Under the pieces are notes generated by a model, which ran no database searches, was not told the origin of the DNA, and worked only from the letters and a program-made list of their open reading frames with translations. A stretch of DNA of 64,000 nt from Eledone cirrhosa (lineage: Eukaryota). How positions within the stretch are numbered: position 1 is the stretch's first letter; every line of letters starts with the position of its first letter. Both the position numbers and the translations under genes were made by a program. The stretch spans positions 28,458,001 to 28,522,000 of the forward strand of contig OZ024752.1 in assembly GCA_964016885.1 (NCBI GenBank), read 5' to 3'. Shown piece after piece: positions 17,544-32,260 of the stretch.

Positions 17544-18130
17544 AATTAGAATTGGTGCTCTGAAATAGCGATATATATATGAATGTATATATAGTGTATT
17601 TTGCAATACACTGTATGCTTAATTAAAAGCATTTTGAAGACCATACGCTATTGTTTTAAAGTAGCGACATTGTCGCTTACTTAATTTTCTGCAAACAGGG
17701 GGAGATAAGTTGAAAGCGTTGTTTCGTACTATTTGGAACTTGTCAAAACTCACTACTCTCCCCGTCTGCTGAATATTATGTGTGTTGGATAGAATTAAAT
17801 TAGTTGGATATAATTAAATTAGAATTGCAGTAACAATCAGGAACTGATTCTAATTTTCAATTTCTGCTGGGCCAGCGACCGCTCTGTAAAATCAGTTTCC
17901 GATTGTTACTGGAATTCTATAAGAATCCAACACACGTAATGTTCGGCAGACGTGGAGAGTTGTGAGTTTTGACAAGTAGCAATTAGTACGAAACAGTGCT
18001 GTCAACTTATCTCCCCCTGTCTGCCGAAGATTTAAGTAAGCGACAATGTCGCTACTTTATAACAATAGCGTATGGTCTTCAAAATGCTTTTAATTAAGGC
18101 ATACAGTGTATTGCAAAATACACTATATAT
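17544..18130. mobile_element. Family B foldback element, copy 1 (diverged arms)
   Basis: Inverted arms around a spacer shared with other copies; hammerhead motif in each arm; ends in (TA)n. Confidence 0.85.
17964..18008 (+). ncRNA. Minimal type I hammerhead ribozyme, U3:A8 variant (family B)
   Basis: gagtt-TTGACAA-gta..tac-GAAA-cagtgctg-TC^aactt; degenerate partner on the minus strand at 17707-17751. Confidence 0.7.
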
Positions 18131-18295
18131 ACATTCATATATATATATATATATATATATATATATATATATATATATATATAAGTATGTATATATATAT
18201 ATATAAATATATATATATATATATATATATATATATATATATATATATATATATATATATATATATATATATATATATATATATATATATATATA

Positions 18296-19918
18296 TATTG
18301 GTGAACGGAATAGAAAATGCTGACAAATTGTTCACAGTGAAAAATAGTTTAATTAGGAATAAGTGAGAATTAGTAATAGTATTGGTTAGTATTCAGTTTT
18401 GGTTTTAAGTTTTACCGGTTGCGCATTTCTAATGCTTTTCAAAAATAATTTTGAGATAGAGCGTCCGTGATGTTTGCTCTGATCTGATTAGTTTTGGGAA
18501 TTCTACCTGTTTTTATGTTAAAAAAGTGGCTCCAGCGGTATTAAAATAAGTTTTGCGCCAATTCGTGTTGCAAAAATTCTTGTGGTCAAAACAATTTTGA
18601 TTGGTCGGTAGAGGTCATGTGAATGTAAAAACTGATTTTGCGCCAAATGTAGGTTTGTGTCGGCTGACTGAGAAATAAGTCTTTCACAACAAATATGTGT
18701 GTGTATGTGTGTGTAGTAGTAGTAGTAAAGTGGTTCGTTGTTGTGATAATGGTCAGCAGGGATGTGTGTGCGAACCGCAGCCTGTTGACAGTTCAAATGC
18801 CTATTAAGACAAGTGTGTGTGTGTGTGTGTGTGTGTGTGTGTGTGTGTGTGTGTGTGTGTGTGTCTGTGTGTGTGTGTGTGTGTGTGTGTGTGTGTGTGT
18901 GTGTGTGTGTGTGTGTGTGTGTGTGTGTGTGTGTGTGTGTAGCAGAGTAATTCGTGGTAGAGGGATGGTCAGTAGGAATGTGTCTGTAAGTGTGTGGGGG
19001 ATATTTTAACATGTTAAAAGATATATTTTCAGCTCTTGTCTTATACGGAGAAGTGTGTGTGTGTGTGTGTATGTCTCTTTGTATGTTAATGTACGCGTGT
19101 GTATGTGTGTGTATATATGTGTGTGTGTGTGTGTGGTAAAATGGTGTACATTATTCGATATTTTCAGTAAAATCGATTCTCTCAATAGAACATCAAAAAC
19201 CTTAATAATAAAAGGTATGAAATGATATATAGTATTGGCATAATACCAAGGTGTGTGTGAGTGTGTCCAGATTGTACGTACTGCAAGGGGGGTACATTAG
19301 GCCTTGCCGTATTGGAATACCTGTGCACAAATATGTATCTGGAGTGTGTCCAGACACACACACACACACACACACTTGTCTTAATATGCATTTGAACTGT
19401 CAACAGGCTGCAGTTCGCACACACATCCCTGCTGACCATTATCACAACAACGAACCTCTTTACTACTACTACACACACACACATATTTGTTGTGAAAGAC
19501 TTATTTCTCAGTCAGCCGACACAAACCTACATTTGGCGCAAAATCAATTTTTTACATTCACATGACCTCTACCGACCAATCAAAATTGTTTTGACCACAA
19601 GAATTTTTGCAACACGAATTGGCGCAAAACTTATTTTAATACCGCTGGAGCCACTTTTTTAACATAAAAACAGGTAGAATTCCCAAAACTAATCAGATCA
19701 GAGCAAACATCACGGACGCTCTATCTCAAAATTATTTTTGAAAAGCATTAGAAATGCGCAACCGGTAAAACTTAAAACCAAAACTGAATACTAACCAATA
19801 CTATTACTAATTCTCACTTATTCCTAATTAAACTATTTTTCACTGTGAACAATTTGTCAGCATTTTCTATTTCGTTTACCAATATAACATAACTTGTGTG
19901 TTACACCTCTATTCTTTT
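18296..19918. repeat. Long inverted repeat element (arms about 18296-18830 and 19354-19885) between (TA)n tracts
   Basis: Arms are near-identical reverse complements, also visible as mirrored ORFs 18518-19012 (-) and 19251-19565 (+). Confidence 0.9.
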
Positions 19919-20152
19919 ATATATATATATATATATATATATATATATATATATATATATATATATATATATATATATATATATATTAGAATTGGTGCTC
20001 TGAAATAGCGATATATATATATATGAATGTATATATAGTGTATTTTGCAATACACTGTATGCTTAATTAAAAGCATTTCGAAGCCCTTACGCTATTGTTT
20101 TAGAGTAGTGACAGTCTCACTTACTTCAATTTTCAGCAAACAGGGGAGATGA

Positions 20153-20197
20153 AGCTGACAGAGCTCTGTTTCACACTTTTTGGTGCTTATCAAAGCT
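20153..20197 (-). ncRNA. Minimal type I hammerhead ribozyme, U3:A8 variant (family B, opposite arm)
   Basis: Exact reverse complement of 20397-20441. Confidence 0.72.
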
Positions 20198-20396
20198 ACC
20201 TACTCCGCCTGTTTGCTGAAAATTGTGAATGTTTGATTCTTATAGAATTCCAGTAATAATCAGGAACTGGTTATACCAATTCTAATTTTCAATTTCTGCT
20301 TGACCGGCAACCGCTCTGTATAATCAGTTCCTGATTATTACTAGAATTCTATAAGAATCAAACATTCACAATTTTCAGCAAACAGGCGGAGTAGGT

Positions 20397-20441
20397 AGCT
20401 TTGATAAGCACCAAAAAGTGTGAAACAGAGCTCTGTCAGCT
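20397..20441 (+). ncRNA. Minimal type I hammerhead ribozyme, U3:A8 variant (family B)
   Basis: agct-TTGATAA-gcac caaaaa gtgt-GAAA-cagagctctg-TC^agct. Confidence 0.72.
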
Positions 20442-21429
20442 TCATCTCCCCTGTTTGCTGAAAATTGAAGTAAGTGAGACTGTCACTACTCTAAAACAAT
20501 AGCGTAAGGGCTTCGAAATGCTTTTAATTAAGCATACAGTTTATTGCAAAATACACTATATATACATTTATATATATATATATCGCTATTTCAGAGCACC
20601 AATTCTAATATATATATATATATATATATACTCTGCTTTGTATTGAGTACCTTACTTACTGTGGCTACTCCCGATTGAACCCGAGATAAACTTATATATA
20701 TATATATATATATATATATATATATATATATATATATATACTATAATCGTAAGGAACAAGGATTCAGCGTTGCATCATAATATATTTAATAACATATGTT
20801 CCACTATCGATCAGCTCGAGGCAAGACCTATTATAGATCGAATCTGACTCTGTAATCGAAAGGTCGTCAGATATGCTTAGTATATGATTTGTTCTCCGAT
20901 TCTGTGTGTTGAAATCTCTCTTCAAATCTTGTTTTACCTCACGGAGTTCAGACCGTGTCTATCTGTCGTCTGACATCTCTTGATTAAGGACGATATGTTA
21001 ACAGAATATATATATATATATATTAAAATAACAGATTAATGTTTAAGCAAAGAATCGGTGCTTTCACCCTTAACGGGATCTTGCTTAAACTTTAATCTGT
21101 TATTTTAATAAATATTTGCTCTACGGTTCTTATATATTTGATATATATTTATCCTTATCGAGCCCTCTTTGGATTTTAGTCTTCAAATTTATTATTATTA
21201 CTATATATATATATATTATATATATATATATATATATATATATATATATATATATATATATATATATATATATATATATATGTGTGTGTGTGTGTGTGTG
21301 TGTGTGTGTGTGTGTGTGGTGTCAGTCAAGTTTGCAATTTTCAACTGCAATATATATATATATATATATATATATATATATATATATATTGCAGTTGAAA
21401 ATTGCAAACTTGACTGACACCACAGAATA

Positions 21430-30837: not shown

Positions 30838-31025
30838 TGGTGGGTTGGCAGTATCGGTGGAGGGTCGGACGCCATGCTTTCCAGCATAGTTACGTCCCTT
30901 TACGATCTGAGTTCAAATCCCGCCGAGGTTGACTTTGCCTTTCATCCTTACGGGGTCGATAAAATAAAGTACCAGTAATGCACTGGGTAATTGCTGGCCT
31001 TGTGCCTAAAGTAGAAACAATTATT
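30838..31025 (+). mobile_element. SINE subfamily 1 copy
   Basis: Same boxes, core and tail. Confidence 0.87.
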
Positions 31026-31226
31026 ACTATAAATATATATATATATATATAGAGAGAGAGAGAGAGAGAGAGATATAGATTTCGAGTATATGTTGGTTGT
31101 ATACCAACACCTCAGTGTGCAGGCTGGAGCACTCGACGAAGTGCGCAGGTTGGTTTGATTACTCCGGAGTAATGTAAAATAAAGTAAAATAAAAAGTCAA
31201 ATGTTTAAAATTTAGCTTCGTTTATT

Positions 31227-31281
31227 ACTGCTATATATATTTCGGTGACAGCCATCTTTGGCTGTGACCTCTTCAGGCAGT
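31227..31281 (-). ncRNA. Minimal type I hammerhead ribozyme (mirror copy)
   Basis: Exact reverse complement of 31656-31710. Confidence 0.82.
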
Positions 31282-31655
31282 CCGAATTAGTGTGGTATAG
31301 ACAAGTACATATGTTGTTGAGGTGTATAATAACAACACTACCAACACAATAACAACAATAACAACACTACCAACACAAGAATTGAGGTCAGATGTACCTA
31401 ACAATAACAAGAACAACAACTACAGATTGGCTTGCCTCAGAACGAACTTCTATAGACTTTTGAATGAGGAATGTTCTAACAACTGACCAATGAGAGGAGA
31501 AGAGGCACTGTGACACTGAAATTCGTTTGTTTGAATTCATATGATTCCAGTTCCTCTGTGAAATAACAACTCAACCAGGAACTGGGCATATCAGAGTATT
31601 GACAAAATTATACACCTCAACAACATATGTACTTGTCTATACCACACTAATTCGG

Positions 31656-31710
31656 ACTGCCTGAAGAGGTCACAGCCAAAGATGGCTGTCACCGAAATAT
31701 ATATAGCAGT
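31656..31710 (+). ncRNA. Minimal type I hammerhead ribozyme
   Basis: actgc-CTGAAGA-ggt c acagcca aaga tggctgt c acc-GAAA-tatata-TA^gcagt, then AATAAA. Confidence 0.82.
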
Positions 31711-31879
31711 AATAAACGAAGCTAAATTGTAAACATTTGACTTTTTACTTTACTTTATTTTATATATATATATATATATATATATATATATATATATATA
31801 TATATATATATATATATAATTAAATTAAATAAATAAGTCAAATGTTTAAAATTTAGCTTCGTTTATATATATATATATA

Positions 31880-32260
31880 ATTAGAATTGGTGCTCTGAAA
31901 TAGCGATATATATATATGAATGTATATATAGTGTATTTTGCAATACACTGTATGCTTAATTAAAAGCATTTCGAAGACCTTACGCTATTGTTTTAGAGTA
32001 GTGACAGTCTCGCTTACTTTAAATTGTCAGCAAACAGGGGGAGATAAAGCTGACAGAGCTCTGTTTCGTACTTTTTTGGTACTTATCAAAGCTAAGTACT
32101 CCACCTGTTTGCTGAAAATCATGAATGTTTGATTCTTATAGAATTCTAGTAATAATCAGGAACTGATTATGGTATAAACATAATTTCTGCTTGACCGGCA
32201 ACCGCTCTGTATAAAAGTTCCTGATTATTACTAGAATTCTATAAGAATCAAACATTTATG
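31880..32260. mobile_element. Family B foldback element, copy 3 (right arm truncated)
   Basis: Same terminus, arm and spacer sequence. Confidence 0.85.
32048..32093 (-). ncRNA. Minimal type I hammerhead ribozyme, U3:A8 variant (family B)
   Basis: agct-TTGATAA-gtac caaaaaa gtac-GAAA-cagagctctg-TC^agct. Confidence 0.78.

Follow-up and report, generated by a model that had tools for sequence, protein, structure and literature searches.

Family B of the Eledone cirrhosa genome, a small repeat carrying a hammerhead with a U3:A8 core, is judged from its sequence very probably to be a non-autonomous, non-LTR retrozyme that is inserted head to head by a reverse transcriptase (RT) of the Penelope type. 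The U3:A8 core is an uncommon but already known swap, and the shape of the insertions points to Penelope-type retrotransposons (Penelope-like elements, PLEs) as the moving machinery; the evidence lends no support to a palindromic replicon of the viroid-like kind. The mover of animal retrozymes has so far been argued from co-occurrence and terminal homology. Family B is a retrozyme that bears the mechanistic mark of reverse transcription by a PLE, in that two start sites are used, one at each end, in 90% of palindromes, and PLE mobilisation and two-strand, two-site priming thereby become testable with a 319-nt template. The window referred to throughout is the whole 64,000-nt stretch that was analysed (contig OZ024752.1, positions 28,458,001 to 28,522,000).

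Copies in the window and their hammerheads

The three palindromic copies proposed in the initial annotation were all recovered at about the expected positions; the left terminus and the central segment are common to the three, and the arms are inverted in each. Copy 1 (17545..18148) is a head-to-head insertion of subfamily B1, with 26 of 26 B1-diagnostic sites in its right arm, a junction near 17847-17850, a tail at the end of the left (minus) arm and a right (plus) arm that ends at the short TA site; its ends are BLAST limits that blur into (TA)n. Copy 2 (19985..20612; junction near 20275) belongs to the GCAC/GTGY stem II lineage of subfamily B2 and carries a tail at both ends, which is rare. 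Copy 3 (31878..32263), of the GTAC/GTAC lineage of B2, is truncated in its right arm, which goes no further than unit position 89, short of the ribozyme. Its junction filler (32169..32183, plus strand) comprises 15 nt identical to window positions 30774-30788, themselves part of another repeat, and this templated insertion indicates that the copy 3 junction formed on its own. The 3' remnant expected at about 41495-41595 was found at 41494..41603 on the plus strand as an old, 5'-truncated piece spanning unit positions 189-297 and flanked by two (TA)n runs. Because the three copies represent three different lineages, have no rare variant in common, lie in differing flanks and carry one ribozyme per strand, a reading of them as mutual duplicates or master copies was rejected. 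Other near-perfect palindromes are also present in the region, and the output of a repeat finder run on the window was swamped by microsatellites.

A generic type I descriptor matched the U3:A8 core and GUC site at four places, +17969 (TTGACAA), +20401, -20193 and -32089 (TTGATAA), and the stems listed in the initial annotation are the ones present at these matches. The corresponding motifs lie at 17965..18007 (plus; TTGACAA, GUC, with stem II down to 3 bp), in the left and right arms of copy 2 (20153..20197, minus; 20397..20441, plus) and in the left arm of copy 3 (32048..32093, minus). The right-arm motif of copy 2 has a palindromic helix III, and its helix I is extended over a long stretch (about 20372-20468); the predicted cut lies between 20437 and 20438. 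A degraded motif in the left arm of copy 1 (17708..17750, minus), overlooked by the descriptor, retains the core and has lost the GUC triplet and stem II to mutation, so that intact motifs occupy four of the six arms. A hammerhead on each strand thus holds for copy 2, which is intact on both, but not for copies 1 and 3, which are intact on one only. In one short-read run (X4) a single contig covers 20372-20490 at depth 398, its others ranging from 4 to 34; since the kind of run is not on record, this depth was given no weight.

Exact matches to the core plus stem II number 2,366 in the genome against none for a reversed control, so the feature is not a product of chance. Hammerhead families were absent among the 150 listed of 347 Rfam matches, where only low-complexity miRNA models appeared. 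Across 244 motifs U3:A8 is kept in 234 and all 12 core positions in 188; position 2 of stem I is CG in 165 and TA in 58, and position 2 of stem II is TA in 131 and CG in 102. These two positions are truly compensatory, as had been claimed for the stems generally, but the contrast of gta/tac with gtac/gtac, offered as a further example, is actually a loss. Of the cells in 14 chosen rows, 97% are paired, and both sides have changed in 19 of 28 pairs. The covariation upholds selection on structure at the level of subfamily lineages, but single inserted copies decay neutrally: among them the core bases are no more strongly conserved in A/T columns (2.05% vs 1.97%, p 0.79), and two G columns show a weak effect (p 0.03). 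Folding z-scores failed to choose a strand (sense -4.0, antisense -3.8), and for the B2 domain in isolation the fold of lowest predicted energy is not the hammerhead, the core pairing instead with helix III.

The 319-nt unit and its relatives

The central segment described as a spacer (20291..20320, plus strand, with equivalents beginning at 17859 and 32182) is indeed present in all three copies, but it is an ordinary part of a tandem unit, positions 7-35 of a 319-nt, circularly permuted, non-coding monomer, and it is conserved in a sister family as well. By inspection the unit is AT-rich; it is without LTR structure, and no ORF of at least 130 aa covers a copy. Its length falls within the roughly 150-450 bp of head-to-tail retrozyme units, and it bears a single type I hammerhead, the core being the U3:A8 variant. 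Family B occurs as fragments, as partial tandems of 1-3 units, including natural dimers with period 319, and as 14-unit arrays, those at two loci (L164 and L169) measuring 4.4-4.6 kb. Short-read contigs that run tail to head upstream of 20275 number 35, 26 and 28 in three runs from one sample. A further 400 kb, taken from the neighbourhood and from arbitrary places, contained no family B copy, only a sister array (L040). The sister family, C, is colinear with B on the same backbone and has a C3:G8 core; one of its arrays (6.1 x 312 nt) lies 14 kb upstream of the window. A natural sister pair of C3:G8 and U3:A8 ribozymes on one backbone lets the cost or tuning of the core swap be asked.

Non-LTR retrozymes of metazoans (PMC7229834, Cervera and de la Pena 2020; bioRxiv 10.64898/2026.07.22.740005, Li et al. 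2026) have in common with family B a non-coding, AT-rich tandem unit of 170-400 nt with one type I hammerhead, a range from monomers to long arrays, thousands of copies and co-existing PLEs; in this genome 927-aa open PLE frames occur at two loci. Family B differs in its U3:A8 core, in a helix III of 3-4 bp rather than 1-2 bp, in a very long extended helix I, and in consisting mostly of dispersed, head-to-head insertions of 1-2 units with a one-sided tail in (TA)n. In the text consulted, neither the core swap nor this insertion anatomy is described for retrozymes, and a literature search for octopus retrozymes gave only unrelated matches.

The core itself has a precedent in the pLTR hammerheads of the Schistosoma PLE Cercyon, where about 1,300 matches to the U3-A8 variant are recorded (PMC4209133), and pairs of hammerheads on opposite strands, 100-700 bp apart, have been published for PLEs (PMC4209133; Cervera and de la Pena 2014). 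Family B resembles these in its type I motif, U3-A8 pair, opposite-strand pairs and palindromic helix III; it differs in that its helix III is full and its helix II has 4 bp, where the pLTR motif is minimal, and in repeating as an ORF-less 319-nt unit.

One property of the tandems sits awkwardly with a circular template. Successive units of the same arm resemble one another no more closely than do copies from other loci (34/72 loci), where a single circular template would favour alike successive units, and this counts against the circular-template model. Rare variants are nevertheless common to units about five times oftener within a locus than between loci, and decay after insertion may mask the likeness of successive units.

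Insertion anatomy and the putative mobilising partner

Head-to-head palindromes were found at 37 of 60 unselected loci, the remaining 23 being non-palindromic, and in 17 of the 37 both arms include the hammerhead region. Two sites account for 88 of 107 arm ends, of which 75 enter (TA)6 or more; the two 3' end sites lie about 30 nt apart in (TA)n, giving a tail of about 25-37 nt whose start is blurred by an internal AT run. Where both ends could be assigned, one is short and the other tailed in 23 of 26 unselected palindromes (p 9e-5) and in 56 of 62 palindromes overall (p 3e-11), and the same pattern recurs at 4/4 sister-family loci and 2/3 PLE loci, the third being cut by the locus edge. The 94 junctions comprise 52 overlaps, 37 with filler and 5 that are blunt, and arm lengths run from 33 to over 4,000 nt. 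The 5' ends are variable and 5' truncation is polar; many copies are single-armed, and head-to-tail tandems occur within arms.

Insertions of EN+ PLEs are characterised by partial tandems, an inverted 5'-truncated copy, a 30-40 bp tail at one end and a microsatellite bias (PMC8557442), with both strands cut and the tail defined by two internal RT start sites (PMC11167929). Family B has in common with EN+ PLEs and with non-autonomous Chlamys elements such as MRC1 the 5' truncation, partial tandems, inverted 5'-truncated copy, one-sided tail of 30-40 nt, microsatellite targets and two apparent RT start sites; it differs in that the repeat in its entirety is non-coding and 319 nt long, and in that no autonomous partner could be matched to it by sequence.

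That the palindromes are instead MITE-like DNA transposons with long terminal inverted repeats and a TA target, or artefacts of DNA-level fold-back or assembly, would fit the TA flanks, the long inverted arms and the other near-perfect palindromes of the region. Copy 2 in particular lends itself to such an account, its arms differing at 3/256 sites, having five private variants in common and both carrying the tail, and its junction being bridged by none of the 32 short-read pieces listed of about 6,600. These accounts appear highly improbable nonetheless, as the termini are systematically unlike, with the tail one-sided in 56/62, rather than matching on units of uniform length; as many copies are single-armed, the 5' truncation has a polarity, arms hold head-to-tail tandems and the RNA stems covary; and as the arms of copy 1 differ at 16/194 sites. 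In copy 2, and there alone, the arms may have been homogenised with each other.

A candidate for the class of mobilising partner is present within the window itself, a 5'-truncated PLE on the minus strand (26280..28570) that is not part of family B. This element encodes the C-terminal part of an RT, a Cys-rich linker and a GIY-YIG-like domain; its 3' repeat contains, near 26531, a hammerhead-like core of the U3:A8 kind, and the element terminates in (TA)n. The genome also contains intact 927-aa PLE frames that have inverted 5' copies and TA ends, and an intact TA-targeting PLE in it likewise has U3:A8; Pfam and PDB sequence searches with the 927-aa protein gave no matches. Termini homologous to B were not found in the one PLE family tested or in the PLE fragments of the examined loci, and the candidate PLE has the TA-rich end alone in common with B, its own ends lying about 160 nt apart rather than 30.

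In an alternative reading, family B would be only the stranded terminal repeat (pLTR) of an autonomous PLE, rather than a retrozyme in its own right whose RNA passes through a circle. Every PLE insertion signature is present in it, retrozymes have been proposed as pLTR derivatives (bioRxiv 10.64898/2026.07.22.740005), and its 5' ends are not tied to the ribozyme cut, with 8 of 260 at u150-158 against 7.3 expected. This indifference of the 5' ends to the cut site also counts against the retrozyme reading that we favour. An autonomous PLE would, however, have an RT and GIY-YIG ORF between pLTRs, and in the dimers and 14-unit arrays the tail joins the unit's own head with no ORF. A tblastn search with one PLE protein across all examined loci returned a single PLE fragment directly next to a B arm on the same strand (L197), the join falling in mid-hammerhead, and in no case did B sequence serve as a PLE 3' UTR. 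The stranded-pLTR reading is on balance quite unlikely.

For a PLE-mobilised retrozyme the following sequence of events can be envisaged. Tandem source loci would be transcribed and the ribozyme would cut the transcript to unit-length RNA, which would probably then be closed by ligation to circles, as happens with other retrozymes. At a (TA)n tract, a Penelope-like RT/GIY-YIG protein would nick the two DNA strands, and each strand would prime one cDNA, the two start sites lying about 25-37 nt apart in the RNA and being used one apiece. Each cDNA would extend for a random 0.1 to several units before the two were joined by microhomology or filler end-joining, and the product would be a palindrome with its 3' ends outward, a one-sided tail and a centre that is different each time. 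Such palindromes would be dead ends, their own transcripts self-pairing and hiding the ribozyme.

Fold-back points and the proposed palindromic unit

The initial annotation took the shared fold-back point as a sign that the palindrome moves as a whole, as a rod-like RNA bearing a ribozyme whichever its polarity, with a fixed junction copied from insertion to insertion. In its favour, the junctions of the three window copies coincide to within about 16 nt and in the same orientation, closer than chance, with breakpoints at about u38/u314, u34/u310 and u36/u7, and the window supplies three of the five matches to this junction pattern in family B genome-wide. Beyond the window the coincidence does not hold. 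A junction within 15 nt of those in the window occurs in none of the 37 unselected palindromes; among the 94 junctions from outside the window one matches (L002, fetched by a query containing the junction), and both breakpoints are common to 1 of 666 junction pairs; a fixed spacer junction, set in advance as the check, gave way to scattered fold-back points. The joining sequences in the window differ, the copy 3 filler was copied from other DNA, and the three lineages lack a common rare variant and have different flanks. The palindrome is, moreover, missing at 23/60 loci and includes the hammerhead region in both arms at only 17/37. Its full transcript is predicted to form a 95% paired duplex (-508 kcal/mol, vs -90 per arm) that buries the ribozyme.

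Hammerhead viroids and viroid-like RNAs are small structured RNAs with ribozymes in both polarities, the plus and minus ribozymes of viroids being distinct. Family B is analogous in being a small structured hammerhead RNA with a probable circular stage. It differs in that the second-strand ribozyme is a duplicate arising from insertion, the same motif once per strand, and not a separately evolved minus-strand one, and it gives no sign of RNA-to-RNA replication. We accord the palindrome-as-unit account scarcely any probability.

The agreement of the window's junctions is a local anomaly, and not a family trait, that the insertion model leaves without explanation; the chance of such a triple is about 1.6e-4 per triple, for a pattern found post hoc. 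It is conceivable, if unlikely, that the coincidence is mechanistic, a resident palindrome or nascent transcript drawing in same-family insertions and fixing where their two cDNAs stop and join. This would amount to homology-guided local retrotransposition, in which insertions of three lineages within 15 kb inherit the position and orientation of a junction and not its sequence. Three simpler accounts were rejected: derivation of the copy 3 junction from copy 2 by micro-inversion, since the filler matches 30774-30788 exactly; a junction sequence lent by a neighbour, since copies 2 and 3 carry B2 bases beside the junction and not the B1 bases of copy 1; and a TA-rich hot spot, since the TA-run density of the window is ordinary (67 in 64 kb vs 208 and 225 in 200 kb).

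A tandem retrozyme unit behind the palindromes

Family B is a new non-LTR retrozyme with a known variant of the hammerhead core, and its palindromes are insertion products of the type made by Penelope-like elements (PLEs). Its value lies in the evidence it offers on the insertion mechanism, in a natural C3:G8/U3:A8 sister pair and in one unexplained local coincidence. The three head-to-head copies recognised in the initial annotation (copy 1, 17545-18148; copy 2, 19985-20612; copy 3, 31878-32263) and a 3' remnant at 41494-41603 were confirmed in the window. At genomic loci the 3' terminus leads directly into the "spacer" and then into another copy; a natural dimer (L027) has a period of 319 nt, and arrays reach 4.4-4.6 kb at L164 and L169. 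Counting from u1, the first base past the terminus, the unit has its spacer at u7-35, the start of its core at u117 and a predicted cut after u153; the central spacer of the palindromes is an ordinary part of this 319-nt tandem unit. Among short-read contigs over copy 2, from three runs of a single sample that is possibly the source, the commonest loose end upstream of 20275 was the tail of the preceding unit (35, 26 and 28 contigs), and no piece among those listed spanned the copy 2 junction.

It had been proposed that the whole palindrome is mobile, as a rod-like RNA with a ribozyme in either polarity and a fixed spacer junction. For an unselected sample, a 25-mer from near the 3' end of the unit was used; it has 948 exact matches, and the first 100 of these fall in 64 loci on one contig (C1). 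Of the 64 loci 60 were analysed, two others being set aside as already known and two more not retrieved. Head-to-head palindromes occurred at 37 of the 60. None of their junctions lay within 15 nt of those of copies 2 and 3, one lay within 25 nt, and both breakpoints were common within 3 nt in 1 of 666 pairs; this is the scattering that the annotation had itself named as refuting a fixed junction. Microhomology overlap accounts for 52 of 94 distinct junctions outside the window, filler for 37, and 5 are blunt. The hammerhead region is present in both arms of 17 of the 37 palindromes, in one arm of 19 and in neither arm of 1. Complete copy 2 is predicted to fold into a 95% paired hairpin (-508 kcal/mol, against -90 for each single arm), and the palindrome would thus bury the ribozyme. 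Given the scattered junctions, the motif region shared by both arms in only 17 of 37 cases and the predicted burial of the ribozyme, the mobile rod-like RNA is not upheld.

In the window, a generic descriptor of type I hammerheads locates motifs that combine U3:A8 with a GUC cleavage site at +17969, +20401, -20193 and -32089. The left-arm motif of copy 1 has lost both the cleavage triplet and stem II, and the right arm of copy 3 stops short of the ribozyme; the proposed hammerhead on each strand therefore stands for copy 2 alone, and copies 1 and 3 retain one intact motif each.

Core variation and selection

A search of the 3.0-Gb genome with the core plus stem II pattern gives 2,366 exact matches, against none for a reversed control. 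Across 244 aligned family-B motifs the 3:8 pair is U3:A8 in 234 and C3:G8 in none, and all 12 core positions are kept in 188. Compensatory changes between lineages occur at position 2 of stem I (CG 165, TA 58), at position 2 of stem II (TA 131, CG 102) and at two pairs of the long, extended helix I, and a third lineage (L208) adds others in all three stems. In a set of 14 rows selected by hand, to which family C contributes four, 97% of cells are paired and both sides are altered in 19 of 28 pairs; this pairing was equalled in 0 of 500 shuffles, slid controls being 33-46% paired, and as the rows are related and chosen no probability is attached to it. Single copies decay neutrally, with departure rates of 2.05% in A/T core columns and 1.97% outside the core. 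Selection on the structure, as first suggested, thus applies to the source lineages with their compensatory stems and not to single inserted copies.

The sister family C is represented about 14 kb upstream of the window by a young array of 6.1 x 312 nt (L040:3749-5659, G000:C12), which is alignable with family B along the entire unit but has a CUGAUGA core and a short palindromic helix III. The 3:8 pair therefore covaries between sister families on a common backbone. A motif common to both families has 17,553 matches, family C supplying 92 of the first 100. Family C comprises thousands of units, often as head-to-head array pairs.

The U3-A8 pair has been described as a covariation that occurs in nature and is active in vitro (PMC3088659; for background on the 3-8 pair, PMC3884650). 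Some 1,300 PLE motifs of Schistosoma are reported to carry it, in a paper that also describes pairs on opposite strands spaced by 100-700 bp (PMC4209133). Both non-LTR retrozymes and the proposal that PLEs mobilise them are treated in PMC7229834 and bioRxiv 10.64898/2026.07.22.740005. No description of a U3:A8 retrozyme, or of a one-sided tail for retrozymes, was found in this literature, the supplements of which could hold such cases. In the predicted fold of the isolated B2 domain (B2 being a subfamily of family B) the core mispairs with helix III, which counts against easy activity; since helix III is palindromic, the motif could fold as a dimer, a possibility already raised for PLE motifs.

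Probable Penelope-like mobilisation

At the unselected loci two sites take 88 of 107 arm 3' ends, u293-297 (43) and u2-14 (45), and (TA)6 or more adjoins 75 of the 88. One short and one tailed end mark 23 of 26 unselected palindromes with both ends assignable (p 9e-5 against 0.5), 56 of all 62 such palindromes (p 3e-11 against 0.5; a further 35 of the 97 in all have an unassignable end) and 4 of 4 family-C loci fetched. The pattern is like that described by Craig et al. (PMC8557442) for PLEs, namely 5' truncation, partial tandems, an inverted 5'-truncated copy, microsatellite bias and a tail of 30-40 bp, often at one end only. Tails at both ends occur in 2 of the 62. In copy 2 both arms are tailed and have five private variants in common, which suggests that they were homogenised against each other after insertion.

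Frangieh et al. (PMC11167929) showed for a PLE protein that it cleaves AT-rich DNA on both strands and begins reverse transcription at two internal sites bounding the tail; insertion in vitro needed no ribozyme cleavage. The lack of excess of family-B 5' ends at the predicted cut site (8 of 260, 7.3 expected) fits such dispensable cleavage. Judging from the genomic ends, one start site would be used per strand at a family-B insertion; no strand difference in start-site use is reported in vitro (PMC11167929). Mild 5' breakpoint clusters, 6 at u168 and 21 against 9 expected at u205-215 (the latter partly one locus with internal repeats), are possibly reverse transcriptase pauses at stems. A circular RNA template, proposed for family B by analogy with other retrozymes, would favour likeness between successive units of an arm, but these resemble each other no more than copies from separate loci do (34 of 72 loci). 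Opposite arms of a locus do resemble each other more (62 of 79), and sharing of rare variants is about five times as frequent within a locus as between loci.

Also in the window, at 26280-28570 on the minus strand, lies a truncated PLE. Its family, present too at L201 and L202, shows open frames of 927 aa at two of the loci fetched, inverted 5' copies, TA ends, two alternative 3' ends about 160 nt apart and 1,337 exact matches to its U3:A8 hammerhead-like core. The family has been recently active, with 96-100% protein identity among 150 scored matches. The 927-aa protein had no match in Pfam or PDB searches; its nearest Atlas clusters score 0.96-0.98, with HTH_animal, GIY-YIG and RVT_1 on some members. 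Its termini show no detectable homology with those of family B, and this PLE therefore stands as no more than a candidate class of partner. At L197:1412-2966 a related PLE 3' region breaks off mid-hammerhead and joins a family-B arm on the same strand with no TA run, the product either of template switching, as a chimera, or of an insertion accompanied by a deletion.

An inverted CUGAAGA hammerhead pair with long helix II (31209-31730; motifs at 31276 minus and 31661 plus), a repeat also in other loci, is probably another PLE-type head-to-head insertion. An isolated CUGAUGA hammerhead-like motif adjoins a (TA)n run at 24902 (minus strand), and broken non-LTR-type reverse transcriptase frames at 38171-40524 give a weak RVT_1 match (E 2e-5, below the Pfam cut-off). 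Near-perfect palindromes at 18294-19886, 21893-23897 and 34743-35185 are repeats present in other fetched loci; another, at 24511-24740, has no second match.

Coinciding junctions in the window

A pattern built from the window junctions has three genome matches, all inside the window and in the same orientation; a looser one has 18, of which 13 are family C and 5 family B, three of these in the window. The copies nevertheless arose as separate events, since all 26 diagnostic sites assign copy 1 to B1, the B2 lineages of copies 2 and 3 are distinct from each other, the three copies have no rare variant in common and the filler at the copy 3 junction reproduces the 15 nt at 30774-30788. Drawn from the observed junction set, three junctions would agree so well with a chance of 1.6e-4, a figure for a feature picked post hoc among many windows and several families of this kind, and the shared junction may be coincidental. 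Copies cluster locally with some frequency, a second fragment being present at 13 of 160 family-B loci fetched, some of them overlapping; at L007 and L096, the two loci that hold a pair of palindromes, the junctions do not agree within 16 nt. A local mechanism guiding the coinciding junctions is regarded as quite improbable.
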